IMG/VR virus record: IMGVR_UViG_3300045988_168552
Source of the DNA: a virus
Reading direction: 5' to 3' (one strand)
Length of the DNA: 64,000 bases
The first letter of the stretch is position 1. The number at the start of each line of letters is the position of its first letter. Below, one piece after another: positions 18,331-59,237 of the stretch. The translations under genes and the position numbers were made by a program. The notes beneath the pieces were generated by a model. It ran no database searches. It had not been told where the DNA came from and worked only from the letters and a program-made list of their open reading frames with translations.

Positions 18331-18349
18331 AATGAAGTTTCGGGTGTGA

Positions 18350-18436
18350 AAGCTTTTGCCCTTACAGGGCGCATTGCTGATTGCCATTATACCCAGGGCG
18401 ATGCCCTGGGCTAGGAGCTTCTGCCCCTTCAGGGCG
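18350..18436 (-). repeat. 87-bp multi-hairpin MITE/REP-like element, copy A
   Basis: Its reverse complement aligns along its full length with 47381-47467 at about 85-90 percent identity by eye. Internal hairpin CCCAGGG-N5-CCCTGGG. Confidence 0.75.
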
Positions 18437-18540
18437 TGTGGGGATCACGAAAAATCCGTCTAAATATATAATATTTCTTAAAAATATAACTTATATTATA
18501 TATTATATAGCTTACCTATACTCTTTTCGATTTATTTTTG

Positions 18541-18548
18541 TATCTTTG
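18541..18548 (+). promoter_or_regulatory. -7 box TAtcTTTG
   Basis: 35 nt upstream of the 18583 ATG, in an AT-rich context. Confidence 0.5.
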
Positions 18549-18582
18549 CAGCAGATTTTATATAATATAATATATGTAAGGT

Positions 18583-41242: not shown

Positions 41243-41896
41243 ATGACAAAGAATAAAGAAACCCCCGAACAGCGCACGCAGCGTTTCAAGACCCTTTGCG
41301 TTAATATCCTCGCCCAGAGCGGCAACTGCCAGGAATCCCAGCATACTTTCAAGAGCACGCAGAGCATTCCCGAAATGTGCGAGGCATGGCGCAAGTACTG
41401 GCACGGCTTAATCACCGAGGTACCGCAGCAGGTAATCGATGCTTTCAAAGCCGTATATCCGGAATTTAAGGCTGATATAAACCAGGGTGGTATCTTCTAT
41501 AACGAAGATTCGCCTACCGGTACCGTCCTTGTGGGTGATACAGACGAGGAAATCCACCTCTACTCTTCCCGAAAGATATACGTCCTCGGCAAGGCGCACG
41601 TCATTCTCCATAATGCGGCTACCGCCCTCGTGATGAATGAAGGCTGTAAGATAGAGTTATTGGATGGCAGCAAGGCAACCATCAAGGCAGGTTACGGAAT
41701 CGCCCGGAATTATGCCCATCTGGTAACTTGCCAGGAAGCGGAATGCTACGACCAGAGTGTAGCCTTCATTACCGATGGCACCCTTCACGACCATGGGCAT
41801 CAGAAGATCAATGCCTTTGGTACGGCAATGATCGACACCTTTACCCATCGACTCATAGACCTCTATGATAGCGCCAGGATAGAAATCAGAAAGTAA
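41243..41896 (+). CDS. virion-operon protein, unknown
   Basis: ORF track; 217 aa. Confidence 0.6.
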   Translation: MTKNKETPEQRTQRFKTLCVNILAQSGNCQESQHTFKSTQSIPEMCEAWRKYWHGLITEVPQQVIDAFKAVYPEFKADINQGGIFYNEDSPTGTVLVGDTDEEIHLYSSRKIYVLGKAHVILHNAATALVMNEGCKIELLDGSKATIKAGYGIARNYAHLVTCQEAECYDQSVAFITDGTLHDHGHQKINAFGTAMIDTFTHRLIDLYDSARIEIRK

Positions 41897-41920: not shown

Positions 41921-44827
41921 ATGAACTCACATCTCTCTATATTAATCAATGATAAGCCTGTGGCGCTCCCCGATGATTTCTCTATAGATATAGAGGATCA
42001 GAACCCGGTATTTAACGATACGGAAATGTTCTCCTATCCCTTCTCTATCCCGCTAGACGGCAACCGCTGGCTGGTAAAGAACATCGAAGATATTCATGCT
42101 GCTATGAAAGCCGTGAATATGGAGCACCTGCCTGTCAGAATCAATGCCGACGGATTGCCATTCCGCAGCGGTACCCTGGTTATGCAGGATGGTGAGGAGA
42201 TAACCAATTCTCTCTCTATGAGCATCGATGCCAGCACGCAGAGTTTCAGCGAACTTATCAGCGACCTGCAATGTCGTGATATTCCGGTCAAAGACCAGAT
42301 TATCATCGGCGAGAAAATTGGCAATGTGAGGGTGGATATTTGGAGTAACCCGGTAGTAAAAGTCAACCTGCATTCCGATGGCAAGAAAGGTGGAAAGAAT
42401 ACCACCGCCACCGTTACGACCGACCCCTTGAGAGCTAGTAAGGTACTGGAACCCCAGGCACTCGGTTTCTCCTATCCCGCAAGCTGCAAGGAATATACCT
42501 CTACTGATACGGCACACTATATCGGCGATGCCTACAACAAGAGTAAGAAATCTTATTCTTCTGGTGCGATAACGATCAATGTACCGCAAGAGACTGCCAA
42601 CGGCAACTATATTAATACCTCGGCAGCCTATGACGAGACGGATGGCGCTGGCAGACCTGCTACCTACTGCAATGCCCGAATCTGTTACAAGCATCATGCC
42701 CTTGATGATGAAGGGAATACATCGAGTGACCTCATCAAAATGGATAAGTGCTCATGGACGAATGAAGACCTCTATCCTTACTGGGTGTTGGATGCCAAAC
42801 GTCCGCAATCGGGCATCTGCTTCTATGTACTCTATTTCCTCGACTGCCTCTTTGCCCATTTGGGTGTAACCTTTGACAAACGCGCATTAATGGAGATAGA
42901 GGACCTGAAGCATCTCTGCTTCTTCACCACCGTCTGCGGTTATGATACTCTCGAACACCCCCATCACGGCGATTATTACGAAGCAAAGGAAATTCAGGAT
43001 GCCAAGGACATCATCAACAAGGATGGCTATGTAAAAGGCAGCAATCCCGAAATGGAGATCGTGGCTGCTAAATCCGTAGGCGAAATCAAGACGGGCTTCT
43101 TTAAGGATCAGAAGCATATCAATTCCTGGTTGGAGAGCCGTGGCTGCGGCGGTCAGATTGAAATCACCAAGGCAGAAGATAAGGACGTGCAGGAACTCGA
43201 GCTTACGCTGACTGAAAACGGTGTGGCTACCACCCGCCATATCCAGGTGGGCGAGGTAGTTGCTTTTCCTCCTGGCAAGGGAATGAAAGTAACGGGTATC
43301 ACCATCGAATCGAATATCAAGAAGTTTGAGGTGCAGGCAAACGTGCTCTATATGGTTGCCAACAGCGAGAATTTCCCTGACGAGAGCGTGAGCACTGTCA
43401 TCTCTTCTCTAGAAAACGCATTCGGTATCAAGTTCTCCTACGATTACGAGCAGAAGAAGGTCACGGCTTATCTCACCCGCGACGTGATGCGAAAGAGCGG
43501 CAGAAAGACTAGGGATTTCCACTGCGAAATCCATTCGATGATTCCGGTGACCGAGAAGATTACCGGTGTGCGTATGCGCTATTCAGCCGAGGAGGATGCT
43601 AAGGAACAGAAGAGTTATGTGCGCAACGCCAAGGGCGAATTGAAGGATTCCAGCTACGATACCGACTATAATTACATTGACTATCCGTTGCCCGATGGTA
43701 ACTCTAGCAAGATGGGTAGAACCGTTACGGATATGAAATATATAGAGTTTTTCCATAACATCAACAATCCAGGCGATAATAACTGCTACATCGACCGCAA
43801 CACCGGCAATGCCTATCGTGTAAAGGTCAATAAGGAAGCTAAGACTTCCAACGAGCTGAAGCCTGTACTCTTCGAGGTAGGCCAGTTCAAGGGTGTAGAA
43901 TATGGCGATTGCAGTGATGAGAATGAAGATTTCATCCACGATATTTCCATCGACTTCACCCCTGTACCTTTCAACGATGTAAACTATTTCAAGGAGGTAA
44001 AGGCAGCCTATGGTTCGCATACCGCTGATGTGACTGACTTTGAAGGCAAGCCTTTGCTAAAAAGTGTAGTGCAGATTACAGAGGCTCAACAACCTATCCT
44101 CTGCGCTTATGTAGATGAGGATATGGAGCATGAGTTTGTACTGCAGGAGATTAACCAGGTTATCTCTTCTTCTTTCTGTGATTTCTACATGAAACAGAAA
44201 TTAAAGCTCGTGGAAAGCTACGACCCTTCGGGCACGGATGATGGCAACTCACCCTTGCAGGATAAGTCACGATGGGGCTTTGCCATGGCATTAATGCGTG
44301 GTGGCGGTAGTGATGCCACCCTGCAACCATACGATTATAACTACGACCATTTCGGCACATCCAAATGGCGAACCAATGCAGGACAGTATGCCCTGGCTTG
44401 CGATTCGCTGGATATGATGGGCAATGTGTTTGATTATAATGGTGTGCAGGAAGGTGTAGGCACCGGCGAACGTTTCTCGCTGAAGATACGAGCCTTCAAG
44501 GAACCATCGTGGCTAAAAGATCCGAAGTATAAGGATTTGGTGCTCTGCAATGCCGATGAAGTAGATAAAAACGGTAAGGTAGTTAAGAAGGTCCGCTCCC
44601 GTGGTCTCTTCGATACCTTCATTCTCCCCTACGCCTATTTCCTTCTGAACAGAAAGAAGTTTATGATAAGATGCACCACCACCGTAGCGCAAGTGGCTGA
44701 TATACCGAACCACTGGCAGGATTGGTGGAATATAGGCGGCATGAAATGTCTCATTGACAAGGTGAATACCACCATTGATGCCAAGACGGGTATGGGCGAA
44801 GTAGAGTTAACGGTATATGCTTTATAA
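41921..44827 (+). CDS. large virion protein (968 aa), possible distal tail/baseplate component
   Basis: Placed by size and position upstream of the fibre genes. No motif recognised. Confidence 0.55.
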   Translation: MNSHLSILINDKPVALPDDFSIDIEDQNPVFNDTEMFSYPFSIPLDGNRWLVKNIEDIHAAMKAVNMEHLPVRINADGLPFRSGTLVMQDGEEITNSLSMSIDASTQSFSELISDLQCRDIPVKDQIIIGEKIGNVRVDIWSNPVVKVNLHSDGKKGGKNTTATVTTDPLRASKVLEPQALGFSYPASCKEYTSTDTAHYIGDAYNKSKKSYSSGAITINVPQETANGNYINTSAAYDETDGAGRPATYCNARICYKHHALDDEGNTSSDLIKMDKCSWTNEDLYPYWVLDAKRPQSGICFYVLYFLDCLFAHLGVTFDKRALMEIEDLKHLCFFTTVCGYDTLEHPHHGDYYEAKEIQDAKDIINKDGYVKGSNPEMEIVAAKSVGEIKTGFFKDQKHINSWLESRGCGGQIEITKAEDKDVQELELTLTENGVATTRHIQVGEVVAFPPGKGMKVTGITIESNIKKFEVQANVLYMVANSENFPDESVSTVISSLENAFGIKFSYDYEQKKVTAYLTRDVMRKSGRKTRDFHCEIHSMIPVTEKITGVRMRYSAEEDAKEQKSYVRNAKGELKDSSYDTDYNYIDYPLPDGNSSKMGRTVTDMKYIEFFHNINNPGDNNCYIDRNTGNAYRVKVNKEAKTSNELKPVLFEVGQFKGVEYGDCSDENEDFIHDISIDFTPVPFNDVNYFKEVKAAYGSHTADVTDFEGKPLLKSVVQITEAQQPILCAYVDEDMEHEFVLQEINQVISSSFCDFYMKQKLKLVESYDPSGTDDGNSPLQDKSRWGFAMALMRGGGSDATLQPYDYNYDHFGTSKWRTNAGQYALACDSLDMMGNVFDYNGVQEGVGTGERFSLKIRAFKEPSWLKDPKYKDLVLCNADEVDKNGKVVKKVRSRGLFDTFILPYAYFLLNRKKFMIRCTTTVAQVADIPNHWQDWWNIGGMKCLIDKVNTTIDAKTGMGEVELTVYAL

Positions 44828-44844
44828 CATAAAAAACGAAAAAA

Positions 44845-46053
44845 ATGGATAGAAAAATTTTAGTCACTGGAACGGGTATTCATTCTGCCCTAGGCAGAAA
44901 TACAAAAGAAGTAGCCCTCAATCTTTCCCAGGGCAAATGCGGTTTGGTTCATGATATGTGCCGCAACTACTATAACTCCGATCTGTGCGGAGACGTACCT
45001 AGTTGGGCAGAAGATTATGAGAAAATCCTTACCCATGCGCAGAATGCCTGCCTGCCTCTGCATGGTTTCACCGTCCTCAATGCCGTATTTGAAGCGCTGA
45101 AGAACGCAAAGGTCAGCAAGGATTTCTTGGAAAATCATAACGTTTCCATCATCGTAAGCAATGACTCTGAATGTTATGAGAGCCAAACCGTGGTGGACCA
45201 TGTGAATAAAAATCGTCACAACCGCTCTTTGCCGGTAAATACCCTGTTCCGTTCGCTCAACTCCACTATCAGTATGAACCTGGCATCCATCCTCCATATC
45301 CACGGCTTATCGCTTACCGTAAGCGCAGCCTGTGCCGGAGGAGGTCACGCCATCGGTCTTGCCAAGATGCTTCTCGATAGCAAGCAGACGGAAATGGTAA
45401 TCGTGATTGGCGCGCAGGAATGCGAATCTAATTACTGCATGGAAGCTTTCGATGCTCTCGGTGTTTTCTCACCCGATAATGTGCAGCCGTTTGGTAAAGG
45501 CAGAAATGGATTGGCACCATCAGGTGGTGCAGCCTGCATCATCCTTGAACCATCGGATAGTTTTCGTCTGAAAGAAGAGAAGGTGTATTCCTTCGCTTCT
45601 CTTTCCGGCTATGGCTTCTCTACCAATGGAAAAGCCATCACTACTCCTGATACCTATCAGGAAGAAGTATCTATGCTGAATGCTATCGAGAACGCAGGTC
45701 TGGACGAAGGTATGATAGACGTAGTACTTGCTCATGCTACCGGTACCCCGATGGGCGATGAAGCCGAGGCAAAGGCAATAGAGAAGGTCTTTCCTATCTG
45801 TCCGAACGTAGTAGCCACAAAAGGCTTAACGGGTCACGAGTGCTGGATGGCAGGCGTATCGCAAGCCGTGCAAGCCGTGATGATGCTCACCTACGGCCGT
45901 CTTTTTGGCGCTGTAACCACCGAGGAGAATGCCTTCCCATCCCTCAATCTTGTGATGCGCCCGAAGTCCTATGCTCCTCACCATATTCTCTGTAACGCCT
46001 TCGGTTTTGGCGGTACCAATTCATCCTTTATCATCTCAAAAGCATTGTTATGA
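44845..46053 (+). CDS. beta-ketoacyl-ACP synthase (KAS I/II, FabF/FabB-like)
   Basis: The Cys-His-His triad contexts look intact: 'VSAACAGGGHAIG', 'AHATGTPMGDEAE' and 'TKGLTGHECWMAG'. C-terminal 'NAFGFGGTNSSFII'. Confidence 0.85.
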   Translation: MDRKILVTGTGIHSALGRNTKEVALNLSQGKCGLVHDMCRNYYNSDLCGDVPSWAEDYEKILTHAQNACLPLHGFTVLNAVFEALKNAKVSKDFLENHNVSIIVSNDSECYESQTVVDHVNKNRHNRSLPVNTLFRSLNSTISMNLASILHIHGLSLTVSAACAGGGHAIGLAKMLLDSKQTEMVIVIGAQECESNYCMEAFDALGVFSPDNVQPFGKGRNGLAPSGGAACIILEPSDSFRLKEEKVYSFASLSGYGFSTNGKAITTPDTYQEEVSMLNAIENAGLDEGMIDVVLAHATGTPMGDEAEAKAIEKVFPICPNVVATKGLTGHECWMAGVSQAVQAVMMLTYGRLFGAVTTEENAFPSLNLVMRPKSYAPHHILCNAFGFGGTNSSFIISKALL

Positions 46054-46295
46054 AAAAAGAAGAAATAACTCCTCGCATTATCGCCATCGTAAACAGCCTG
46101 AAAACCTCGTGGGTCGGTTGCGAGGTAACAGAACACTCCAATCTCCGTGATGAGGTCCAGCTGGAATCCATCGATTTCCTCGATCTCATTCAACAGGTAG
46201 AAATGATGTTTCACATCAAGATCACCCCTGAAGAGGCAAAAGACTGCAAGCTCGTTTCCGATGTAGTCAATCTCGTAATTAAAAAGAAAGAATAA
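46050..46295 (+). CDS. acyl carrier protein-like
   Basis: 81 aa. 'LESIDFLDLIQQVEMMFHIKITPEEA' parallels the ACP DSLD..ELV...E..F helix II region. ATGA overlap with the KS stop. Confidence 0.7.
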   Translation: MKKEEITPRIIAIVNSLKTSWVGCEVTEHSNLRDEVQLESIDFLDLIQQVEMMFHIKITPEEAKDCKLVSDVVNLVIKKKE

Positions 46296-46296
46296 T

Positions 46297-47346
46297 ATGG
46301 CAAAGAAAATTAATCTCACGTCGGGTTCCATTTTTGCCGGAAACCCCATCACCTTCACCATCCAGCCCGAAACGCTGGATAGCCCCTCCTTCCACCGTGT
46401 CATCATAGAAGTAAACTTTGATAACGGAGGAAGCTACGAAACCGTGAAGCTCACGGTACCCGTCACCACCGAAGGCAATAACGTAGCCCTGGATGTCTCC
46501 TCTGCACTCCGCATCCCCCTCGACAATTTCCCGTACACCGCCACCACAAAAACCTTCCCGCTCGTAAGATGGTACATAAAAGCCTACGATGAGTATATGA
46601 ACAAAAACGGCGAAGTGCATACCAGTGTAGGCGAGGTCTATTATCCACAGAAGCCTGTCGCAGGTACCGATACTGACCTTCGCTGCATAGCAGGAGCCAT
46701 GTCGGATATGGAGCGCATTCTATCCAATCCATCCCCAGCAGTAAAAGACTTTTCCCGAAAGCCAACCTCTATCCCCGAAGTCACCGTTGTAGGCGAATCC
46801 TTCTCCTACCCAGTCTCCTATGCCTCTTCACAGATATTGGCATCCAGCACTGCACTCACCGCTCCTACCTCTTCCGAACAGAAAATCACAAAGGAAGGTT
46901 CGCAGACTATTGGCGGTCACGCCCTCTATGCTCTGCCATCCTCGGAAGCTGAAAACCGCAGTACCTTCCGCTTCATCAATGCCCGTGGCTGCCTGGAGAG
47001 CATCAATATCCCGAAAGCCTACAGCAAGAAGCTTTCGGTAGAAACCACTCCTTATACGATAGCCGTGCAGGAAACCTTCAATACCTTCTCCCGGTCCGCT
47101 ATCAAGAAGCAGAATAACCGTGAGTCGTGGCTTTATCAGAGCGACCCCCTCGATACCGCCTGGCTCTACTGGTACCTTCACGAGTTTCTGATGAGTGAGC
47201 ACGTATGGCTGAAGGTAAAAGATACCTGGCTCTCCTGCACAATCACCCAGGAAGACGAGATAATGATCAGCGATTCCACCACGCAGAATATGTACTCCGT
47301 TTCCTTCACAGTCAAGCTCGACATCAACGGAAGTCCCTACCTCTAG
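46297..47346 (+). CDS. virion-operon protein, unknown (349 aa)
   Basis: Starts 1 nt after the ACP stop. Confidence 0.6.
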   Translation: MAKKINLTSGSIFAGNPITFTIQPETLDSPSFHRVIIEVNFDNGGSYETVKLTVPVTTEGNNVALDVSSALRIPLDNFPYTATTKTFPLVRWYIKAYDEYMNKNGEVHTSVGEVYYPQKPVAGTDTDLRCIAGAMSDMERILSNPSPAVKDFSRKPTSIPEVTVVGESFSYPVSYASSQILASSTALTAPTSSEQKITKEGSQTIGGHALYALPSSEAENRSTFRFINARGCLESINIPKAYSKKLSVETTPYTIAVQETFNTFSRSAIKKQNNRESWLYQSDPLDTAWLYWYLHEFLMSEHVWLKVKDTWLSCTITQEDEIMISDSTTQNMYSVSFTVKLDINGSPYL

Positions 47347-47537: not shown

Positions 47538-50500
47538 ATGGCAACAGAAGCAAAGAATACAAACTATTGGATTTCGAGCAGTGCGCTCTACATCCAGCTT
47601 AATGCGATGGGTGAGCCAGACTACATCCAGTGTAGCGTAGTCTCCGGCGCATCCATCCTCTGCTATATGCAGGGCATTCCGGGTCTGGAGTATGATGCCG
47701 GTCACAACTACCAGCGCTGGCCTCTTGCTGCCTACCCTTCCGTCTTCCCTGATTCCGAGCGGAAGTACATCTATGCAGCCATCCCCCGCACGAGCACCGC
47801 CGACAACAATACCGCCGTGGTGGTATATCCGAGCGAGCGCATCGACCTGTACGGCTACTCTATCGCCAATCCCGACAAGCTGGTAGGCGACGAGAGATTC
47901 TACTACATCTATCTGCAGGGCATCATCTCTGAAGTGAAGACGGATGCTGATGGCAAGACCCGCAAGCGTAATTGGCTCCAGCACGTGGATTGTGGAAAAC
48001 TGAATACCGACGAATCCCTTTCGAGCGGTATCGATGGCTCCTGGTGGAAGTATAATTCCGTCACCGATTCCATCTCCTTCCTCAAAACCATCCTCTCTGC
48101 CACCTTTGATACGCAGACTGCCAAGGTTGCGAAAATCACGAAGCTGTTCCTGGGGGGTAGCGAGTTGAACGGCGTAGCCGATGATCTCAGCCTGGAAACG
48201 GATAACACGAAGGTGGTTACTCCTCTATATCTGGGTCAGTTTGGCGTGAAGCATTTCCTGGCGAAAGACAAGGATGATGTAGCCCATGGCACGATTACCT
48301 TCGAGAAGGTGCAGAAGTTCCTGGCAGGTCTGAATGTGGGTGATTTCAACTCAGAGAACGGCGGTTCGTGGACTCCCGATATAGAAGGTCGCTCGCATCT
48401 CATCACCGACTACCTGGAGGTGAGGATGAAGGCTATATTCGAGGAGCTTGTAATCAAGAAAACCTCCACCATCGGTGGTAAGGAGATTCTGTCTCCTGCT
48501 GGAGGCGTGGTGGCTCATAAGGTAGAAGAGGTTACTGTGACATATAATAATTTGTCACAGAAGGCTTATCGCTGCTATTTCTTAGCAGAACAGGAAGACG
48601 ATGCCGTGGATAATGATTTCGCTATTGGCGACCAAGTGCGTTCTGAGTCATTCAACGTTCGCAAGGGCACTTACCACAAAGTTGGCAATCACTTTTACTG
48701 GCGATTGGTAATCGGTCGTGATGAGGAACCTGTGGAGTTGGAAGGAAAGAAGTATCACTACATCGACCTCTCCGATACCGATTGCGCTACGGCAAGCGAT
48801 GTTCCTGCTAAAGGTGATGTGTTGTCGCAGTGCGGTAACAGAACCGATGTAGAGCGTCAGAACTGCCTTATCTTCTCGGCGGTAGATACCTATTCGCCAT
48901 CCGTCAGCCTCTATCACGGCATAAATAGCTATTCCTTTGCAAATAAAGAGTACGTGGAGTATGGCGTAAACAAGCAGACCAACAAGGCTTTCTTTAACGT
49001 CTATGGCGATATGTATGTAGGCGACCGACCTACAAAGGAGAATGGCTATGAGGGTAGTAGCTACATCAAGTATGACAGCGCAGCCAAGCAGGTATCTGTT
49101 AAAGGCAAAATCTCAGCCAAATCAACCGTGGATGGCAAGGAATTGTCTCAGTATATCAAGGAGAACTCAGCAGGAGGCTTAACCGAGGAGCAGGTGAACA
49201 ATCTCATCAAGAACTCGCAGGTGATAGCCGACCTTCAGAATCAGGTTGACGGAGCTATCGAGACGTGGTTTTACGATGGTGTGCCTACTTTGAAGAATGC
49301 GCCAGCAAGCAGTTGGACGACCGATAAGGATAAAGATACCCATCTCGGCGACCTTTACTACGACAACAAGACGGGCAAGGCATACCGCTTTGCCAAGGAT
49401 GGAAACACCTATAAGTGGACAATCATCACGGATACTGATATTGCCAAAGCTCTTTCTGATGCCAGCAAGGCACAGGAGACCGCAGATGGCAAGATGAAGG
49501 TATTTAGTGCTCAGCCTATTCCGCCTTATCAGTTGGGCGACATTTGGGTAAACGCTACCTATCCTACAGATGGCAGCATCTACAAGAATGAAATCCTGCG
49601 CTGCCAGACTGCCAAGGCAAAAGGTTCGTCATTTGCCATCGCTGACTGGACTAAGGCTTCCAAGTACACCGATGATTCTGCCCTCAATACCTTCAAGGAA
49701 GAGTACAAGAACGATATGGCTAGCTACAAGGAGCAGCTTGATGAGAAAGTGGAGACCTGGTTCTACAACTATGCTCCTACTACTCAGAATAAGCCTGCTT
49801 CCGACTGGACTACCGATACGTTGAAGTCGCAGCACGCTGGCGACCTGTTCTACAATACGTCAAATGGTTACACATACCGATGGACGGGTACGGCATGGGC
49901 GAGAATCAAGGATAACGACATCAACACTGCTATGACCGCAGCAAGCAAGGCGCAGGACACGGCAGATGGAAAGCGTACCGTTTTCACCTCTCAGCCTACT
50001 GTTCCTTATGACGAGGGCGATTTGTGGGCTAGCGGCGGAGATGATGGCAAGACTTTGATGGTGTGCGTTAAGAGTAGAGTCACTGGCAGTTTCACCTCAT
50101 CAGAATGGGTAAAGGCTAATGATTCCGACCTCAACGCATTCGCCAAGACCATAGAGGAAAGCTTGAATGGAATACGAGACCAGCTCGACAAGAAGGCTGA
50201 GACTTGGTATCAGGCAACCGACCCGAGTACATCCTGGACTACCGATGATGCGAAGAAGGAGCATAAGGGCGACCTGTGGTATAACACAAGCAACAACCAG
50301 ACTTTCTTTTGGAATGGTACGAAATGGGATAAGCAGGACGTGCCTACCGAGGTCTTCGACAAGATAGATGGCAAATCCAGCATCTATGTAAGCAAGCCTG
50401 CATCCTATGAGGAACGTGACCTCTGGATTTTGGAAGCAGCATATACCCTCGGTGGTGTTGCATATTCCAAGGGCGAGCTTGTCGTGGCAACCAAGACCAA

Positions 50501-53500
50501 TGCTTCATTCAGCGCAGCCGATTGGACAAAGAAGGTTAAGTACACAGATGATACTGTAGCGAACGCCGCCAAAAAGGCAGCAGAGAAGGCTCAGAAGGCG
50601 GCAGAAAAGGCGCAGGGTGACATCAGCAAATTAGGAACTACCGTAACTGACAACAAAAAGGCATTCGATAACTACGTAACAGATGGCTATCTAGAGCCTT
50701 CCGAGATTGCGGCTATGGCGCAGGATTCCAAGCGACTTGAAGATGCTTTTGCAGCCGCCGAGAAGTCTTACACTGAGGTAAAGGGAGCAGAGGTACTGGC
50801 GAACACCAAGGAACTCACTGACCTCAAAACTGCTTTTGCAACACTCACTACTGCCAAGACGGAACTCGTCACGTATCTCTCCGATATTTCGGCAAGATAT
50901 AATAAGGCTGATACTAACGGCAAGGCAACCATCGTCTCAGCAGTGGGAACGAAATTTACCAACTTCCAGGGTGCGTATTCGGCTTTCTACGACAAACTGG
51001 GTCTGGCGAACGCATATATCACTCGCAAGATATATGGCGACCTCGGTGTAGTTATAGGTGACGTAACCAGCCTTGCTTATTTAAAGAAGGCTCTGATGGA
51101 TACTCCCGATACTGAGATTAACGGAGGTCTGATTCTTACATCACTCATCGGTTTGCGAGACACGGGCGGAAACACTACGGCAGGTATCAATGGTATAACG
51201 GAGAAGTCTGCAAAGGGAGGCGGCATCGCTGCTTGGTTCGGTGGCGAAATGGTTGATAAGGACTACAACGATGGCTCGAAAACTCCTGCTAACACCATCT
51301 TCCGCTTCGATGGCTCGGGCTATGTGGCAGGCGGCGCAATCTGGTGGGGAACAGATGGTAGGGTTCATGCAGACCCGACATCGTTTATCATCAGCGAGAA
51401 GAACTTGGGTGCATACCTCACCTTCTTTGAACCAACATGGAAGTCAGGAAGTGCAGGAACGAGCGTTGCCGACCTTGTGTCGCTGAAGCCAAACGCACCA
51501 TTTTCCAAACTTGGTGTATCGGGCGATGCTACATTCGAGGGTGCAATCACCTTTCACGGAATCAGCATCACGTATGATGCGACCAACAAGGCTATCAAGA
51601 TAGATGGTAATCTCTATGCCACAGGCGGTATCACAGCATACGGAGCAGGAACGTCAACATCAGGTGGCGGCGGATTGAATGGTAGTGTAAAGAGCTATGC
51701 AGATGCCTTGAAGCTCACATCAGAATCGCTGTCTGAGGTTGCTTCTGCCTACTCCATCAAGGCTCTCAGCAGACGAATTGATAACATTGCTACAGAGCTT
51801 GGTGGTCTTAGCCTCTCTTGGGATAACATCACTGGCAAACCATCTACGTTTGCACCTAGTGCGCACACTCATAAGTGGGCTGAAATCACCGACCGCATCA
51901 CGAAGGTAAGCCAACTTACTAATGATAGCGGTTATACAAAGAATACTGGTACTGTTACATCTGTTAGTCTTACTCTTCCTGCTGGTTTGACTTGTGCAAC
52001 AAAGACCATCACAACAAGTGGTACGTTTGCCATCAGTCTTGCTTCTGGTTACTCTATTCCAACAACAACTAAACAAAGTTCTTGGGATAGTGCTGTATCA
52101 GTAAAACATAGTCATAGTAATAAATCTGTATTAGACGGTATTTCGTCCGCAAAGGTAACTCATTGGGATAGTGCCTACGACTGGTATGCTCTTATGACTA
52201 CTGACGAGGAGACTGCGGACGGCATTATCAATAAGTGGAACGAGGTAGTGAGCTTCCTCGCAAATATTGCACAGACTGACACTTTGAGCGGTATTGTTGA
52301 CGGAATCAATAAGTCTATATCTGACGAGGTAACAAGAGCGAAAAAGGCAGAAGGGGTAAATGCTTCGGGCATATCAGCCAATAAGACGAGTATCACCACC
52401 TTGCAGGGCTACTTCACCAACGGCTCAGCGAAGAAGGCTCTCCAGCTCACGAATGCTCGCAAGCTTTGGGGTAACTCGTTTAACGGTACTGCCGATATTA
52501 ACGGAAGCATCATCTTGCCTAGTGGAAAGTATATCTCCATCGGTAACATCAAGTTGGAGTATGATGCAGCTAATAAGGCGCTGAAGATTACGAATACTAC
52601 GACCGAAGAGGTGGCTAACCTCTACACAAGTGGTGGTGTTTCTGCCTATGGTGTGGGAACATCATCATCAAGTGGCGGTGGTCTCAACGGCTCTGTAAAG
52701 GCTTATGCTGATGCTATCAGGCTTACTACTGAAAACCTTTCAGAGATTGCTTCTGCATACTCAGTAGCAAAGCTCTATTCGGAGATTCAGAATGTGGCAA
52801 GTGCTGTTCCTAGTATCAGCGTGTTTGTGCCAACTGGCGGAAATGCCCTCACTGGTGCAACCTATGATGCAAGTACTGGTGTAATTACTTTCGCGAAGGG
52901 TACGTTCCTCACGGCTCATCAGTCTCTCGATGGTTACGTTAATGCGATAGCAGTTAGCGGAAGTGGAAATGCCGTTACTGCCGTTACAAAGAGCGGCAAG
53001 ACCATCACCTTCACGAAGGGTGCTACATATCTCACCTCGCATCAGAGTTTAAGTAATTATTACACCAAGAGTAGTGTAGATTCTCTTCTTAATGGTAAGT
53101 CTGCTACTACTCATACACATAGTGTAAAGATTAACGGTATCACTAAAACCATTGCGGCTAGTGGTGGAGATGCTGTAGATTTGGGAACTTATCTCACAAC
53201 ACATCAAAGTCTCGCAGCTTATGCAACTCAGAATTGGGTTAAAAATGAAGCTACTGCTCATAACGCAGATATGGTAGATAATTATCACGCTAGTGGTTTG
53301 TTTACTGGTTTCAGTATTTCTGATGTTGCAAACAAGGTTACTATTAGTATTGGTGGAACTTCTAAAGCACTGAATTTAGTAAGAGCTTTTCCTAGTGGTG
53401 TTGGACACAATTTTAACGATATTGCAACACACGGGAATAGTATGGGTATGTCTAATATTGCAGCACCTTATGCTAGTTCTACAGATAACTATCAAACGTT

Positions 53501-56429
53501 GAATGGTTATGTTAATCCTAATGGACAAACTGGTTGGCATCATTATATTAATCTGTCTTATACTGACAGTAATAATACGGCAACTTCTCCTAATATGTGG
53601 CAAACTCAGTTTGCTATAAAAGCTGGCTCTACTGAAGTTTATGTCCGTTCTAGAGCTGGAGGCAAGATAAGTAATGATGCAGCTTGGGCTGCTCCTTGGG
53701 TAAGACTTGCTAGAGTTACTGACAATGTAGCATCTGCATCAAAAGTTGCTAATGCTCTTTCTTGGAGCGGTTACAGTAGTGGTTCTTATAATGGTTCTGC
53801 TGCAAAGTCTATTAGTATTCCAAACAATACTAATCAGCTTACTAATGGAGCAGGGTTCATTACAGCTTCTGCTTCAATTACTGGTAATGCTGGAAGTGCT
53901 ACTAAATTACAGAATGCTAGAACTATAAACGGAACATCGTTTAATGGTACTGCCAACATAGTAACTTCTTATTGGGGAACAACAAGAAAGCTTTGGGGCA
54001 ATAGCGTGAATGGTAATGCTGATGTAAATGGCAGTATAACTATTGCTAATACTGATGGTGTTTATGTGCAAATTGGTGATGTCAGATTAGTTTATGATAA
54101 AGCTAATACTGCCATTAAAGTAGTTAAGTCTGATGGTACAACCGCAGCTAACTTCTATGCTACTGGTGGCATTACCGCCTATGGTGAAGGTAGTGGTTCG
54201 TCAGGTGGTGGTGGGTTGAATGGTAGTGTGAAGAGCTATGCAGATGCCTTGAAACTTACTAGCGAATCCCTGTCTGAGATAGCTTCTGCCTACTCTATCA
54301 AGGCTCTTGATAGTCGTATCTCCAGCTTGGAAGGTGGTAGTGCTACTACCATCTCTGTCAGTGGCAGCGGTAATGCGGTTACGTCTATCACCAAGAATGG
54401 TACTACTATCAGTGTTGTCAAAGGCAGCACGTTCCTCACCAGCCACCAAAGTCTTGATGGTTATGTAAATAATATTACCACAAGTGGCACTGGTAATGCT
54501 ATTACAAGTGTTACAAAGAGCGGTAAAACTGTTACATTTACTAAAGGTGCAACGTTCCTGACTAGTCATCAAAGTCTTAGTGCTTATTTGAAGTCTGCGG
54601 ATGCAGCTAATACTTACCTTAAACTTAGCGGTGGTGCTATGACTGGTAATATTAGCTATAAAGGGTCTAAGAATACCTATGACATGATAAGGTTTGTGGA
54701 CAACAATGTCGATATTTATGGCAATGGTATATGTATCGGTGGTGGCGGACTTACTATTATTGGTGGAGGAGAATCAGCAAGTGAGGTGCTAAAACAACAC
54801 ACAAATGGTGGAGATGAAAATATGATTGTAGCTAATGATGCTGCAATAGACTTCTTCTCTAATATGAATAGTGGATGGGATTCACGCAAAGCTGGTTCTT
54901 TTGATACATCTGGATATTGGAACGGAGTTGGATTTAAGAAGAATAATTCTAATGATAATTATGTTCTTACTGGAGGTGGTGGTCATAAAGCAATATCTAC
55001 TCTATCTGTTAGTTATGCAAGTAGTGCTGGAAGTGCTAATTCTGTTGCTTGGAGCAATGTGAGCGGAAGACCTACGAAAGTAAGTCAGTTTACAAATGAT
55101 AGTAATTATGCTACTCAATCTTGGGTTACTGGAAAAGGATATTTAACTTCTCATCAAGATATTAGTGGAAAAGTAAATAGAACTGGTGATTATCTAGATA
55201 CTGATAGTGATAGATGGTGGATTTCAAACTCTGAGTTTGGCATAAATTTACATAATTCTGATATTGTTGGTGTAAATAGTATATATACTTCTGATGTTTC
55301 AAATGGACCAGAAGAAAGTATATCCTTTAAGAGAAGTAATGGTAATTATGATACTCTAAGAATGGCTGATGGAGTAATATGGTTTGGTACTGATTATGCA
55401 CTCAATAAGACAATTAATGAATATCAAATATTACATACTAATAATATAAGGATAACTGGAAAGAGTAACGGTTTTATTGATATGTCAGCAGGTGGTGTTA
55501 TAAAACAAGCATATATTTATGCTATAGGTAGCATAGATGGATATGAGAGTTATCCTGATGGTAGAACTACATCTATTAATGATTATGATAAAGGTTTAAA
55601 TAGATTATTCTTAACTCATTCTACAAGCTCTCTTCCTGCGTCACAACGTCCATTAGGAAAAGATGGTCACATTTTACACTTTGGCTGGGATAATTCTTCT
55701 GGTTGGGATGCTCAATTAGCCATATCAGCTAATGGTGATAACCCTTATATCGCAATTCGAGCACAATATAGTGGAACTTGGAGAAATTGGTATGGTGCTG
55801 CGTTACTTAAATGTACTAATTATATTAGTGGTAATGGTGGATTAATTGTAGAACGAACTGATAAAAATTTAGATACTTATATAGGAGTTAGTAATGGAAC
55901 TTATGATATAAGATTAATGATTGGTTCTGGAAATGTAAATAGAGGTATTTATGATGTTGTACGTGATAATTGGATGCTATATCGTGATAGCTCTACGAAC
56001 ATATATATGAATGGAAGCGTTCTAGCTACTGGCGGCATTACTGCCTACTCATCCTCAGACATCCGCTTGAAGCAGGATTTGCGCAAGCTGGACTACTTCG
56101 GTATCATCAAGGCAATGGGTGGCACGTTCGGCTTTGCTTGGAAGAAGGACAATACAAGGTCTATCGGCTGGATTGCCCAGCACGTCTTGTGCAACCCTCA
56201 CTTAAAGGACATCGTGGAGACGGACGAGAAGGGCTACTACAAGATTAACTACTGGTCTCCGAAACTGATTGCAACGGCATTCGGTGCTATCGAGCAGGTG
56301 GGCGATGAGGTCGGCAGGTTGAAGGATCGGGTGGTCTTCCTCGAATCCGAGGTTCAGCGATTGAGCGGAAAGCAGGACGGCAATAACAAGAAGAGATTAG
56401 ATAACAAGAATATTAATTTATTAAATTAG
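47538..56429 (+). CDS. giant modular tail fibre with C-terminal S74-type intramolecular chaperone domain
   Basis: 2963 aa with several internal repeat families. The C-terminal 'TGGITAYSSSDIRLKQDL' matches the S-D-x-R-x-K autoproteolysis motif and is followed by a ~120-aa domain ending in a coiled coil. Confidence 0.85.
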   Translation: MATEAKNTNYWISSSALYIQLNAMGEPDYIQCSVVSGASILCYMQGIPGLEYDAGHNYQRWPLAAYPSVFPDSERKYIYAAIPRTSTADNNTAVVVYPSERIDLYGYSIANPDKLVGDERFYYIYLQGIISEVKTDADGKTRKRNWLQHVDCGKLNTDESLSSGIDGSWWKYNSVTDSISFLKTILSATFDTQTAKVAKITKLFLGGSELNGVADDLSLETDNTKVVTPLYLGQFGVKHFLAKDKDDVAHGTITFEKVQKFLAGLNVGDFNSENGGSWTPDIEGRSHLITDYLEVRMKAIFEELVIKKTSTIGGKEILSPAGGVVAHKVEEVTVTYNNLSQKAYRCYFLAEQEDDAVDNDFAIGDQVRSESFNVRKGTYHKVGNHFYWRLVIGRDEEPVELEGKKYHYIDLSDTDCATASDVPAKGDVLSQCGNRTDVERQNCLIFSAVDTYSPSVSLYHGINSYSFANKEYVEYGVNKQTNKAFFNVYGDMYVGDRPTKENGYEGSSYIKYDSAAKQVSVKGKISAKSTVDGKELSQYIKENSAGGLTEEQVNNLIKNSQVIADLQNQVDGAIETWFYDGVPTLKNAPASSWTTDKDKDTHLGDLYYDNKTGKAYRFAKDGNTYKWTIITDTDIAKALSDASKAQETADGKMKVFSAQPIPPYQLGDIWVNATYPTDGSIYKNEILRCQTAKAKGSSFAIADWTKASKYTDDSALNTFKEEYKNDMASYKEQLDEKVETWFYNYAPTTQNKPASDWTTDTLKSQHAGDLFYNTSNGYTYRWTGTAWARIKDNDINTAMTAASKAQDTADGKRTVFTSQPTVPYDEGDLWASGGDDGKTLMVCVKSRVTGSFTSSEWVKANDSDLNAFAKTIEESLNGIRDQLDKKAETWYQATDPSTSWTTDDAKKEHKGDLWYNTSNNQTFFWNGTKWDKQDVPTEVFDKIDGKSSIYVSKPASYEERDLWILEAAYTLGGVAYSKGELVVATKTNASFSAADWTKKVKYTDDTVANAAKKAAEKAQKAAEKAQGDISKLGTTVTDNKKAFDNYVTDGYLEPSEIAAMAQDSKRLEDAFAAAEKSYTEVKGAEVLANTKELTDLKTAFATLTTAKTELVTYLSDISARYNKADTNGKATIVSAVGTKFTNFQGAYSAFYDKLGLANAYITRKIYGDLGVVIGDVTSLAYLKKALMDTPDTEINGGLILTSLIGLRDTGGNTTAGINGITEKSAKGGGIAAWFGGEMVDKDYNDGSKTPANTIFRFDGSGYVAGGAIWWGTDGRVHADPTSFIISEKNLGAYLTFFEPTWKSGSAGTSVADLVSLKPNAPFSKLGVSGDATFEGAITFHGISITYDATNKAIKIDGNLYATGGITAYGAGTSTSGGGGLNGSVKSYADALKLTSESLSEVASAYSIKALSRRIDNIATELGGLSLSWDNITGKPSTFAPSAHTHKWAEITDRITKVSQLTNDSGYTKNTGTVTSVSLTLPAGLTCATKTITTSGTFAISLASGYSIPTTTKQSSWDSAVSVKHSHSNKSVLDGISSAKVTHWDSAYDWYALMTTDEETADGIINKWNEVVSFLANIAQTDTLSGIVDGINKSISDEVTRAKKAEGVNASGISANKTSITTLQGYFTNGSAKKALQLTNARKLWGNSFNGTADINGSIILPSGKYISIGNIKLEYDAANKALKITNTTTEEVANLYTSGGVSAYGVGTSSSSGGGLNGSVKAYADAIRLTTENLSEIASAYSVAKLYSEIQNVASAVPSISVFVPTGGNALTGATYDASTGVITFAKGTFLTAHQSLDGYVNAIAVSGSGNAVTAVTKSGKTITFTKGATYLTSHQSLSNYYTKSSVDSLLNGKSATTHTHSVKINGITKTIAASGGDAVDLGTYLTTHQSLAAYATQNWVKNEATAHNADMVDNYHASGLFTGFSISDVANKVTISIGGTSKALNLVRAFPSGVGHNFNDIATHGNSMGMSNIAAPYASSTDNYQTLNGYVNPNGQTGWHHYINLSYTDSNNTATSPNMWQTQFAIKAGSTEVYVRSRAGGKISNDAAWAAPWVRLARVTDNVASASKVANALSWSGYSSGSYNGSAAKSISIPNNTNQLTNGAGFITASASITGNAGSATKLQNARTINGTSFNGTANIVTSYWGTTRKLWGNSVNGNADVNGSITIANTDGVYVQIGDVRLVYDKANTAIKVVKSDGTTAANFYATGGITAYGEGSGSSGGGGLNGSVKSYADALKLTSESLSEIASAYSIKALDSRISSLEGGSATTISVSGSGNAVTSITKNGTTISVVKGSTFLTSHQSLDGYVNNITTSGTGNAITSVTKSGKTVTFTKGATFLTSHQSLSAYLKSADAANTYLKLSGGAMTGNISYKGSKNTYDMIRFVDNNVDIYGNGICIGGGGLTIIGGGESASEVLKQHTNGGDENMIVANDAAIDFFSNMNSGWDSRKAGSFDTSGYWNGVGFKKNNSNDNYVLTGGGGHKAISTLSVSYASSAGSANSVAWSNVSGRPTKVSQFTNDSNYATQSWVTGKGYLTSHQDISGKVNRTGDYLDTDSDRWWISNSEFGINLHNSDIVGVNSIYTSDVSNGPEESISFKRSNGNYDTLRMADGVIWFGTDYALNKTINEYQILHTNNIRITGKSNGFIDMSAGGVIKQAYIYAIGSIDGYESYPDGRTTSINDYDKGLNRLFLTHSTSSLPASQRPLGKDGHILHFGWDNSSGWDAQLAISANGDNPYIAIRAQYSGTWRNWYGAALLKCTNYISGNGGLIVERTDKNLDTYIGVSNGTYDIRLMIGSGNVNRGIYDVVRDNWMLYRDSSTNIYMNGSVLATGGITAYSSSDIRLKQDLRKLDYFGIIKAMGGTFGFAWKKDNTRSIGWIAQHVLCNPHLKDIVETDEKGYYKINYWSPKLIATAFGAIEQVGDEVGRLKDRVVFLESEVQRLSGKQDGNNKKRLDNKNINLLN
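49258..50400 (+). repeat. three ~150-165-aa tandem protein repeats in the fibre
   Basis: Units begin 'ETWFYDGVP..WTTD..HLGDLYYD', 'ETWFYNYAP..WTTD..HAGDLFYN' and 'ETWYQATDP..WTTD..HKGDLWYN'. Each contains 'KAQ(E/D)TADGK'. Confidence 0.75.
51612..51766 (+). repeat. fibre junction repeat, copy 1 (GGITAYGAG..GGGLNGSVKSYADALKLTSESLSEVASAYSIKAL)
   Basis: A near-identical protein segment with a DNA match to 54152-54308. A more divergent copy lies at 52619-52775. Confidence 0.8.
54152..54308 (+). repeat. fibre junction repeat, copy 3
   Basis: See 51612..51766. Differences are mostly synonymous and of all base types. Confidence 0.8.
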
Positions 56430-56819: not shown

Positions 56820-57881
56820 ATGGCATTAGCAAACGGAAAAATAACAGCTCCAGTCAGCGTTGATGACGTGAAATCTGTACTCGGAGAGTCCAGTAACGAC
56901 CTTGCTGCGCTCTGCAAGTCATCGAAGATAAATGTCTGGGCGAAGTACAAGCCTACCGTATTTCCATCACCCTTTCCTGCCGATTGGTACAAGGCGAAGG
57001 ATGGCAACTACGGCATCAATATCACGATAGAAAACGGCAAGAGCAACTGGAAAGACCTTGTAGCGGAATATTCAAAGGCTAATAATGGATATACCACCTT
57101 ATATAACAAGCCGACTGGCGGTGCGTCTGCGCCATTCCGCTTGGGTGATTTCAGAGGCTACTTTCATAATGCCAATCCCGAGGTGAAGGACTATCTATCC
57201 GCCAACGTGTTCATCCGTGAGAGTGATACCAATCAGATACTCACTCTGTTCAATCCCGTATCAGCAGATGGCTTACAGATAAGCTATTTCGATTTCGCCG
57301 CATTCAAGGATAAGTACTTCGGCTACATCATCACCGACAAGAGCAAGTCCACCCTCATGTTCATCACCACCGCATCCAGTGTGGGAACATTCACAGTGCC
57401 GCTGCCCAAGAATGCCCTTCAGGTAGGCGATTACCTTGCCTTCCCGATGTTCTGCTCATTCAACTATTCCAGCGTCCACACCCTTCACCAGATGACTTGC
57501 TACGCCATCCCAAATCTGGCAGGAGGCAAGCAGCTCTCCATCATCAGCCAGTCACAAGCTGTTGCAAGCAACTTCGCACAGATTACGGCAAGAGAGCAGC
57601 TTGGCAGAATTATCGTGACGCTGAAGTTGAAGGACAATGCCAGTCAGGTAAACAACGTAACCGTATATTGCGTATATCAGACCGACCCGTCAGCTGGTCA
57701 ATCTATGGTGACAGGAGAATACTACAATACCATAGGAACGATGAAGGCAGGCGAAACGAAAACGGCAACATTCAGAAATCTTACCAGCGGCAAGTCATAT
57801 AAGATATACGTGATAGCCAACGGTGTATGGGTTACAAAGGGTCTTATCCCATTTAGTAGTGGTATTATGCCTGATATGTAG
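56820..57881 (+). CDS. receptor-binding/tail-accessory-like protein, paralog 1
   Basis: Its N-terminal 45 aa, 'MALANGKITAPVSVDDVKSVLGESSNDLAALCKSSKINVWAKYKP', are shared with the next gene. The C-termini are divergent. Confidence 0.6.
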   Translation: MALANGKITAPVSVDDVKSVLGESSNDLAALCKSSKINVWAKYKPTVFPSPFPADWYKAKDGNYGINITIENGKSNWKDLVAEYSKANNGYTTLYNKPTGGASAPFRLGDFRGYFHNANPEVKDYLSANVFIRESDTNQILTLFNPVSADGLQISYFDFAAFKDKYFGYIITDKSKSTLMFITTASSVGTFTVPLPKNALQVGDYLAFPMFCSFNYSSVHTLHQMTCYAIPNLAGGKQLSIISQSQAVASNFAQITAREQLGRIIVTLKLKDNASQVNNVTVYCVYQTDPSAGQSMVTGEYYNTIGTMKAGETKTATFRNLTSGKSYKIYVIANGVWVTKGLIPFSSGIMPDM

Positions 57882-57921: not shown

Positions 57922-59237
57922 ATGAGTGTAAATAACGGAAAAATCACCCCCCCATATCCATCGATGATGTTAAGTCGGTGCTGGGAGAACCGAGTAATGA
58001 TATTGCCACATTGTGCAAGTCCGCCAATATCAATAAATGGGCAAAATACAAGCCAATGAGCATAGCCAAGCCGTTTAATATTACAGAACGAGACAGAGCC
58101 AACTGCCGTTATGGTCTGGATTTCACCACCAATTCATTACTTACCAATGAGTTTCGGAGAGGTTCATCTTTTAGCCTGAGTACATATTCCTTGACAAATG
58201 TACTGGATGCTGCCAGTGAATGGACATATTCCAGACCTAGAGGAGGTAGCAGTTCGCCCTATCGTTTAGGCGATTTCGTTAACAATGAAACATTAACAGA
58301 TGGGTATAGTGCAAAGACCTCTGCCCCTTTAGGAGGATTCTACAATGGTGTAATCGGATTGGATAGCTACAAGACTAGAACCATCAGCACGTCACCAGGT
58401 AAGACAGATTCCTCTGCCCTCAATGTAAGCCTTGAAGGTACAAGTCTCTTATATACCAGCTTCAAGTGTAGATGGGCTGGCTCAGATTTATATAGCCAGT
58501 CGTGGCAAGCACTCGGAATGGTAGGTTCAGATGTAATACCTATTAATAATATCCTCGATATTAATAATGGATATTATCGTTTTGGACTTGTTGTAAGGGG
58601 AGTAAGTAATTGGTATCTCTGTGTATCCAGTTCCACATTCAAAGAGGTAAATGCCAATACAGAAAGGCAGACTTCAGCACCGAGATGGATATGCCCGAAT
58701 CTGATGAGCAATACAAGACTTATTGATGAAGTTTTAGAGCACATGAATAGCCACGAAGAGTATTATGCTACAGCAGTACCTTGTATAGTCAAGAATGCTA
58801 TTATATCTGTAAGTGGCTTGATTTGTACCACTAAGCTTCAGAGTGATGGAGAGATATATTGCGTGCCGGAGGGTAAGGTGTTTTTTGCGTTGCAAATCAA
58901 GAAGACGGCAGCTTACACCGTTCACTTCACTGTAGCAGTCTATGTAACCAAACAAATGATAAACGTGGGAAATGGAGAAAGCTGGAACAATTATCCTGTA
59001 GAGGGATTTGATATTGTTTTTGATGGAAATGGAGTTCTTACTCAAGATTATACCATAGAAGCTTTCATCTCCTTTACATATCAGTCGGGCGTGAAGGAAA
59101 GAAAACAGGTAAGTAATTATAAAGTTACTGGTTCTATGAAGAAAGGTAGTGCCGCAGGAACGAGAGTACATTCAGACAATCCACCTAGCTACCCAGCAGT
59201 AGGTAGTATTGTTGTTCAAAGAATAACATGGAAATAA
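57922..59237 (+). CDS. receptor-binding/tail-accessory-like protein, paralog 2, interrupted by a frameshift at a C7 tract
   Basis: ATG 57922 gives 'MSVNNGKITPP'. The -1 frame continues 'ISIDDVKSVLGEPSNDIATLCKSANINKWAKYKP', matching paralog 1. C7 lies at 57947-57953. Confidence 0.6.
57947..57953 (+). repeat. homopolymeric C7 tract at the frame junction
   Basis: Counted directly. Eight C's, or a -1 ribosomal slip, would restore the frame. Confidence 0.9.

Follow-up and report, generated by a model that had tools for sequence, protein, structure and literature searches.

A ketosynthase and acyl carrier protein cassette among the virion genes of a prevalent phage lineage resembles the core of Bacteroidota flexirubin-type clusters

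NodE and NodF of rhizobia are a ketosynthase (KS) and a dedicated acyl carrier protein (ACP) that rely on housekeeping type II fatty-acid synthesis (FAS-II) for a specialised acyl chain; the gene order is NodF-NodE, that is, ACP-KS, and the products go to a known acyltransferase, NodA. In the flexirubin clusters of Chitinophaga and Flavobacterium, the genes for FlxA (a tyrosine ammonia-lyase, TAL), FlxB (a ketoreductase, KR) and FlxC (a KS) follow one another (PMC3992019). Aryl-polyene (APE) type II polyketide synthases (PKSs) combine ApeR, a homodimeric, stand-alone FabB-like KS that is KR-adjacent in its cellular setting, with the dedicated ACPs ApeE and ApeF, and deliver their product to the outer membrane (PMC8358021, PMC8253772). 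IacP is a dedicated ACP, lacking a cognate KS, that acylates SipB of a type III secretion translocon (PMC5279801). Here we describe a KS gene (44845-46053, + strand, 402 aa) and an ACP gene (46050-46295, + strand, 81 aa) in a 64,000-nucleotide stretch of phage DNA, IMG/VR virus record IMGVR_UViG_3300045988_168552, the whole of which we call the window. The original prediction, made from the letters of the window, placed the two genes in a tail morphogenesis operon and offered three explanations: condensation chemistry co-expressed with tail proteins, a host-metabolism moron, or exaptation of the fold as a structural protein. The cassette is real, conserved, prevalent and unexpected, and its tail-specific interpretation is weakened by comparative genomics. 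With moderate confidence, we read the pair from its sequence as a catalytically competent, long-resident, moron-like accessory elongation module that would use host FAS-II and would not be a part of tail assembly.

Both domains of the KS exceeded the Pfam gathering scores (PF00109, N-terminal, 1.1e-24; PF02801, C-terminal, 3.3e-19). Its top solved-structure match was Vibrio FabB (4xox, E = 3.5e-39), which aligned over the full length; identity to FabB is ~27%. In the alignment, Cys163 (codon TGT, 45331-45333, + strand, in SAACAGGGHA) falls on FabB Cys163, His297 (codon CAT, 45733-45735, +, in HATGT) on His298, and Lys326 and His331 (segment KGLTGH, 45820-45837, +, followed by ECWM) on Lys328 and His333, while Phe386 and Phe388 of the FGFGGTN gate loop (46000-46020, +) fall on the F390-F392 loop. 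The phage KS thus shares the Cys-His-His-Lys site and the Phe gate loop of FabB (KAS I) from E. coli and Vibrio. The earlier reading of apparently intact Cys-His-His contexts and an NAFGFGGTN C-terminus, for which it had made substitution on a proper alignment the decisive point, holds up: Cys, His and Lys are all unsubstituted.

The family signatures of this KS are IVSNDS, SAACAGGGHA and TGHECWM, the last of which stands where FabB has GHALGAAG. GHECWM was found in all phage KSs and in the cellular FlxC-like KSs examined, and neither FabB nor the paralogous KSs of the flexirubin-type clusters have it; for this reason, we file the phage gene by its motifs as a FlxC-type, FabB-like KS and not as a housekeeping FabB or FabF. 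The scores agree, being far below the cut-offs of the FabB equivalog NF005935 (166.5 bits against 630) and the FabF equivalog TIGR03150 (162.6 bits against 493.75), so that the original label of FabF/FabB-like stands at the level of the superfamily but FlxC-type is more precise. Unlike FabB, which works with AcpP, the phage KS has an ACP of its own and no housekeeping fab operon around it. It also scored lower against the ApeR homolog 4EWG (81 bits) than against FabB (138 bits). In ApeR, the aryl-stacking Tyr135 that lines the cavity entrance corresponds to Met138 of E. coli FabB (PMC8358021). All phage KSs have Leu at position 138, where FabB and the FlxC-like KSs of cells have Met; with Leu in place of the aryl-stacking Tyr, the primer of the phage KS is probably aliphatic.

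The partner of this KS was also recognisable as a carrier protein. The ACP matched PF00550 (PP-binding) at 2e-5 with 25.1 bits against a cut-off of 20.8, phrog_5934 at E = 1.3e-6 and 28 solved ACPs at E ≤ 0.01 (best E 4e-6); matches to NCBIfam ACP models reached 1.6e-11, every one of them below its cut-off. Ser40 (codon TCC, 46167-46169, + strand), the predicted phosphopantetheine site in the motif LESID, is invariant in all phage ACPs and aligns with the DSL-motif serine of solved ACPs, so that the DSL-type serine first noticed in ESID is indeed in place. It also aligns with E. coli AcpP at Ser36. Helix II keeps its acidic character, with E39, D42, D45 and E51 in place of D35, D38, E41 and E47 of the E. 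coli ACP (EcACP). Neutralisation of EcACP D35, E41 or E47/E48 blocks AcpS (bioRxiv 10.1101/2025.01.28.635281). Retention of the acidic residues makes a host AcpS-type phosphopantetheinyl transferase (PPTase) a plausible activator of the phage protein.

Phage homologs of the window KS were taken from IMG/VR and aligned with it. The catalytic Cys, His, Lys and His, the ECWM that follows, the gate loop and Ser40 of the ACP are invariant among phage homologs at 34-45% identity, and no family member examined, those of the clades at 58-64% identity among them, had a disrupted catalytic motif. Within the window's clade, the ratio of nonsynonymous to synonymous substitution rates (Nei-Gojobori method, NG86) was 0.09-0.16 for the KS and 0.06-0.16 for the ACP, similar to the 0.04-0.19 of flanking genes; both genes are under purifying selection. 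An identical KS protein is found on 37 contigs, the longest of 107.5 kb. It belongs to a 90% cluster of 443 members, over 120 other clusters lie at 86-94% identity, and the KS family is carried by about 70 IMG/VR contigs. In NCBI nr, the KS is labelled 'MAG TPA: hypothetical protein [Bacteriophage sp.]'.

The cassette lies in a co-directional array (37111-59830) whose successive gaps are 34, 42, 6, 24, 17, -4, 1, 191, 8, 76, 96 and 122 nt. A 217-aa open reading frame (ORF; 41243-41896, + strand), the most broadly conserved neighbour of the cassette, is followed by a 968-aa ORF (41921-44827, +), a presumed virion or baseplate gene that is syntenic at every locus of the window subfamily. The KS starts 17 nt after the latter, its TGA stop shares ATGA with the ACP start, and 1 nt separates the ACP from a beta-rich 349-aa ORF (46297-47346, +), a probable tail component. 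The 2963-aa fibre-like ORF (47538-56429, +) comes next. The two genes of the cassette, their overlap and the gaps on either side are as in the original prediction. A scan for sigma-70 promoters and terminators around the cassette gave no enrichment over shuffled sequences, with a promoter model that is not that of Bacteroidota. In GC content and codon usage, the cassette is like the rest of the phage, which fits a long residence.

Synteny in related phages, proposed earlier as a check, was then compared, the 217-aa ORF serving to trace the structural module whether or not a clade has the cassette. The order 217-968-KS-ACP-349-fibre was found at all 45 loci of the window's clade, at one locus with a 54%-identical KS and at nine mapped loci of the 58-64% clades; only in this subfamily does the cassette lie beside the 968, 349 and fibre genes. 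In a second clade, with KSs 37-45% identical to that of the window, the order is inverted to ACP-KS, and the pair lies 28-102 nt downstream of a homolog of either the 2031-aa tape-measure-like ORF (window 11525-17620, + strand; PhageMin_Tail 1e-10, phrog_25337 2e-24) or a 368-aa gene. It stands there upstream of homologs of the primase-like gene (18583-19659) and of the gene at 20610-21497 of the window. Tape-measure-like homologs adjoin ACP-KS in loci L009-L017 (E 1e-198 to 1e-239). In the window, the equivalent site between the tape-measure-like and primase-like genes (17621-18582) is empty: tblastn found no KS or ACP remnants in 17400-18800 and no second copy anywhere in the window. Two genomes of the second clade, L015 and L017, carry the 217-968 module without an adjoining KS (loci L244 and L259), and on a 160-kb contig (L016) KS-ACP stands ahead of a 217-like gene. 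A sister clade (L245-L257, contigs of 78-86 kb) has homologs of the 217, 968, 349 and fibre genes, with a 968-349 spacing of ~250 nt, and no KS within 10 kb of them; its contigs are missing from the IMG/VR census of the KS family, which reaches generic KSs at 26% identity. The shifts of site and order, together with the absence in the sister clade, indicate that the cassette is positionally mobile and dispensable for the conserved tail module. No given tail gene is constantly linked to it or constantly co-occurs with it.

To find cellular relatives, we scanned GTDB genomes for KSs with the patterns TGHECWM and [VL]SAACAGGG. More than 550 cellular relatives were confirmed, and the best 80 all belong to Bacteroidota (Flavobacterium, Chryseobacterium, Sphingobacterium, Tenacibaculum, Cytophagales and others). 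These KSs share 37-41% identity with the window KS and, as in the window, are followed directly by an ACP gene that often overlaps. At 79 of the 80 loci, an ammonia-lyase lies upstream, followed by KR-KS-ACP-LpxL-type acyltransferase, and DarB-like genes occur within 6 kb at 46 of the 80. One such locus, L036, reads aromatic ammonia-lyase, short-chain dehydrogenase/KR, KS, ACP and lipid-A-type acyltransferase, then a 301-aa ORF (weakly flavodoxin-like), a DarB-like ketosynthase III, a BtrH_N/DUF4872 protein and an ABC ATPase. The phage pair, whose KS is 38-47% identical to FlxC-type KSs, is like FlxC and its ACP in GHECWM, in the KS-then-ACP order and in overlapping or abutting genes. It differs in that it stands alone, without TAL, KR, LpxL-type acyltransferase or DarAB, in that one phage clade has the inverted order, and in that the phage KS is long-branched and has CAGGGHA for the cellular CASGSH, VSNDS for GNDS and Leu138 for Met.

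Some of these differences bear on the history of the gene. The motifs CAGG[GA]HA (against CASGSH) and VS[NCS]DS (against [YF]GNDS) are derived in all phage KSs and are not found in the cellular genes, a pattern that favours one acquisition followed by relocation among phages. We also ran a neighbour-joining phylogeny, as had been suggested at the outset. The tree is distorted by long branches, and KS relationships were judged by identity matrices and shared derived motifs in its place. An ancestor of this family of uncultured tailed phages, which measure ~80-110 kb, most likely captured KS and ACP en bloc from a flexirubin/dialkylresorcinol-type cluster of Bacteroidota, the source being the KR-KS-ACP-acyltransferase core; the direction of this transfer is one that we infer.

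Because the cellular genes work among partner enzymes, we compared all plausible ORFs of the window with Pfam. The same was done, at E ≤ 0.01 and for ORFs no shorter than 60-70 aa, with a reference genome from the window's clade (IMGVR_UViG_3300030040_000151; circularly permuted, 106.5 kb, KS 87% identical to that of the window), which was walked through loci L005, L100, L125, L153, L182 and L342. Neither the window nor the reference genome gave a Pfam match to a PPTase, FabD, FabG, FabZ, FabI, a PlsC/LpxL-type acyltransferase or an acyl-AMP ligase, nor the reference genome to a thioesterase or any other FAS or PKS gene, with the limit that many phage ORFs have no Pfam match at all and a divergent partner enzyme could escape detection. 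TAL, KR, LpxL-type acyltransferase and DarAB were likewise found neither in the window nor in the ~106-kb reference genome. The sole gene of an acyltransferase superfamily codes for a 120-aa GNAT protein (4251-4613, + strand, 4e-10) that lies ~40 kb from the cassette. These scans agree with the earlier statement that no acyltransferase, reductase, dehydratase or PPTase is visible in the window. Since no partner enzymes were detected, host enzymes must, on the gene content seen, complete the chemistry of the pair.

The following sequence of events can be proposed. A host AcpS-type PPTase would convert the phage ACP to its holo form, and host FabD would load malonate onto it. At Cys163, the KS would be acylated by a host acyl-ACP or acyl-CoA primer, which it would then condense with malonyl-ACP into a beta-ketoacyl thioester carried by the phage ACP. 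This product may be processed further by host FabG, FabZ and FabI, the effect being that acyl-chain synthesis would be diverted or boosted onto a private carrier, with a timing that would follow that of the co-oriented, tightly packed virion genes. An envelope lipid, or a molecule derived from lipid, is the probable end product. In function, the closest analogy appears to be NodE/NodF, with which the second phage clade also shares the ACP-KS order; no partner like NodA is known for the phage pair.

Intact invariant residues, purifying selection, translational coupling of the pair and its mobile position together lead to the interpretation as an accessory metabolic module. The cassette has an origin in cellular metabolism, a variable position and a patchy presence within the phage lineage, as morons and auxiliary metabolic genes (AMGs) do. 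Of the explanations first offered, a host-metabolism moron with an envelope lipid or polyketide product fits best, given the FlxC-type relatives and the lack of any other pathway enzyme in the phage. Several points weigh against this interpretation. The function of the cellular FlxC KS and ACP is itself a prediction (PMC3992019). The neighbour-joining tree of phage and cellular KSs contains paralogs among the phage sequences besides its long branches, and it leaves a single acquisition unproven. The KS shows the same mosaic diversity as the adjacent host-range genes, which would be unusual for a plain metabolic helper: in two loci of the window's clade (L006, L007), the KS is 83-86% identical and its flanks 96-99%. 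Finally, every arrangement places the cassette directly downstream of a large virion-type gene, co-oriented and with gaps of 17-170 nt, an arrangement that would also suit a virion-linked role.

Such a role could consist in lipidation of a virion protein, in which a chain built or extended by the KS on the ACP would be passed to a tail, tape-measure or fibre protein and aid its insertion into a membrane. The cassette is always appended to a large virion-type gene, either in the 968/349/fibre group or, in the other clade, next to the tape-measure-like gene. It is tightly packed and co-directional with virion genes, and its KS alleles are mosaic like those of the neighbouring host-interaction genes. 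Yet the sister clade keeps the 217/968/349/fibre homologs without any cassette, and the adjoining virion gene varies by clade, so that no constant target of lipidation is evident. Nor does a transferase stand beside the pair, the lone GNAT gene being so distant. Acylation of the tail or fibre, as first proposed, thus keeps the adjacency seen in the window subfamily and loses ground with the cassettes that lie elsewhere in other clades and with the cassette-free sister clade. We know of no acylated phage protein. A precedent for a dedicated ACP that lipidates a membrane-perforating machine exists in IacP and SipB, where the ACP gene is likewise embedded among the genes of a membrane-penetrating nanomachine (PMC5279801). 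IacP-type systems need no KS, however, and the phage cassette has no conserved link to a particular structural gene. Taken together, we regard virion-protein lipidation as unlikely. Its specific form, in which an acyl chain built late by the phage and attached to the tape measure, baseplate or fibre would let the tail enter or cross the Bacteroidota outer membrane, is somewhat less likely still.

The cellular relatives raise another possibility, which we consider doubtful, namely that the pair boosts a host aryl-polyene or flexirubin/dialkylresorcinol pathway in the manner of ApeR or FlxC and so, while the phage infects or is carried, raises the level of an outer-membrane pigment or antioxidant or of a resorcinol signal. 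The nearest relatives of the phage proteins are the KS-ACP pairs of exactly such clusters. ApeR-type KSs raise APE throughput (PMC8358021), and APEs are located in the outer membrane and guard against oxidative stress (PMC8253772). The ParA-like and weak Rep-like genes of the phage, described below, hint at a carrier state. On the other hand, the best 80 cellular matches all come from non-gut Flavobacteriia, Sphingobacteriia and Cytophagia, with no identified Bacteroidales host among them; the phage KS lacks the aryl-stacking Tyr of ApeR; and its identity to cellular FlxC is just about 40%.

Still less probable is a function in host takeover or counter-defence, by which a private KS and ACP would sustain fatty-acid synthesis, or titrate host FAS partners, when an infected host shuts off or poisons its own ACP or FAS. 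The module is prevalent and conserved, supplies by itself just the two most central players of FAS-II, and has an ACP that keeps its partner-recognition helix, all of which would suit this function. No known defence system that targets ACP or KS was linked to it in our analysis, however, and descent from a secondary-metabolite cluster, not from housekeeping FabF and AcpP, speaks against a simple replacement. Non-catalytic exaptation of a thiolase-fold dimer and a small helical protein for structure or assembly of the tail, which the position inside a structural gene array in the window's clade might suggest, is very improbable, given that Cys, His, His, Lys, the gate loop and the phosphopantetheine serine never vary even at 34-45% identity, that both genes are under purifying selection and that relatives with the same tail genes have the cassette elsewhere or not at all.

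How tail-like the neighbouring genes are was assessed separately. The 2963-aa ORF shows a weak Peptidase_S74 match at residues 2840-2883 (SDIRLK at 2840) and two long internal repeats, and among relatives its N-terminus is conserved and the remainder hypervariable. For the 349-aa ORF, a moderate AlphaFold2 (AF2) model (pLDDT 66.7) gave weak Foldseek matches to PDB structures (E 2e-3 to 5e-2, low TM-scores). These were mostly proteins of the tail-tube fold, including the monocin, lambda gpV and T5 tubes and the PVC/AFP baseplates; in BFVD, its matches were exclusively phage proteins (best E 2e-33). The 968-aa ORF had no match in Pfam, PHROG or PDB and none by tblastn against deposited phages, and its AF2 model had a pLDDT of 27.7 from a shallow alignment of 13 sequences; its mosaic alleles fall at 97% or 75% identity. 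When PDB sequences were searched by profile and by sequence, no usable match came up for the 968-, 349- and 605-aa ORFs or for the C-terminal part of the fibre. By its position, the cassette does belong to the tail operon in the window's clade. The original terms 'virion protein' and 'tail morphogenesis operon' are borne out in part, by the fibre hallmarks of the 2963-aa ORF and, weakly, by the tail-tube-like 349-aa ORF, while the 968-aa ORF remains without assignment.

The region 41921-47346, compared with loci L001-L007 and L199-L242, contains distinct allele classes of the 968-aa ORF (97% or 75% identity), the KS (99% or 83-88%) and the 349-aa ORF (98% or 67-72%). These classes are reshuffled among otherwise near-identical genomes, making the region a recombination hot spot. 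Two ORFs 3' of the giant fibre gene (56820-57881 and 57978-59237, + strand) have in common an N-terminal module of ~45 aa (SNDLAALCKSSKINVWAKYKP / SNDIATLCKSANINKWAKYKP), beyond which they are completely different, as alternative receptor-binding proteins that share an adaptor might be. The second of them (419 aa) has a low GC content at third codon positions (GC3 0.36). On the opposite strand after the fibre module lies a gene for a lipocalin-like protein (60373-61227, -), whose homolog in the reference genome (L100, 3864-4724, -) begins with a lipoprotein-type signal (GCGVMTGCSS); a moron-like lipoprotein that acts at the surface or in exclusion is one possible identity. Primase-like replication genes and head genes lie between the 2031-aa tape-measure-like gene and the fibre/baseplate module, an unusual order for a tailed phage.

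In the second clade, ACP-KS is separated from the primase-like gene by that of a conserved protein of 127-136 aa with 3-4 predicted transmembrane (TM) helices (L009, 12306-12698; L010, 12456-12842; L012, 12284-12694; L013, 12407-12793; L015, 12374-12763; L017, 12254-12637), and it has no homolog in the window. This ~128-aa ORF was considered as an AcpS-type PPTase and rejected, as it codes for a membrane protein with 3-4 TM helices and has no Pfam ACPS match.

The phage also encodes TerL, a protease/scaffold protein, the tape-measure-like giant, a primase-like protein, ThyX, guanylate kinase, DNA methylases, a holin, a GH108 endolysin, a LysR-type regulator, a ParA-like ATPase, a beta clamp and radical-SAM proteins. 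The ThyX and guanylate kinase matches came from ORFs of the bulk scan, probably near the window start (ORFs between 517 and 2970). The LysR-type regulator (28493-29398, + strand; HTH_1 1.8e-21, LysR_substrate 8.7e-25, phrog_3736) is full-length and lies just after the head genes, an unusual site for a small-molecule-responsive regulator. Outside the window, the reference genome encodes a ParA/AAA_31 ATPase (2.8e-37) together with a weak Rep3_C and a DnaJ-domain match at L153, and a DNA polymerase III beta clamp at L182. The ParA-like, Rep-like, DnaJ and beta clamp genes together suggest plasmid-like maintenance, as in a phage-plasmid or carrier state. Two weak radical-SAM matches (best 5.6e-4) were provisionally assigned to two ORFs at L182 (13800-14417 and 16309-17310) by the Cys-rich N-terminal motifs of these ORFs. 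Cultured relatives were distant by terminase (Microcystis and Polaribacter phages, ~31%), and a 434-aa capsid candidate had no tblastn match among deposited phages.

Our literature search found no description of a phage KS+ACP pair, and ketoacyl synthase and ACP genes are not mentioned by Benler et al. 2021 for the Flandersviridae and related families. Phage ACPs are known as PHROG 5934, a family of the moron/AMG category that the ACP described here matches, while the KS matched no PHROG family at E ≤ 0.001. KS matches in deposited 'phage' records were mostly FabB/FabF of ~25% identity in prophage or draft records, apart from one unannotated faecal contig with a 36%-identical KS. The view that components of fatty-acid synthase are not a standard phage feature is upheld by these results.

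Auxiliary genes for lipid chemistry are rare in phages, and enzymes of fatty-acid or polyketide synthesis that form carbon-carbon bonds are essentially unreported in them. What is new here is a KS with a private ACP that is fixed in a prevalent phage lineage and traced to a Bacteroidota pathway for outer-membrane pigments or resorcinols. Should tail lipidation after all be true, it would represent a new principle of phage entry and the first tail lipidated by phage-encoded fatty-acid or polyketide machinery. If the pair is active as an accessory module, it would be a compact natural KS/ACP pair obliged to cross-talk with heterologous FAS-II enzymes, and two phage genes would suffice to re-route host acyl-chain synthesis, which would affect the make-up of the envelope, susceptibility to phages and possibly also signalling within communities of Bacteroidota.

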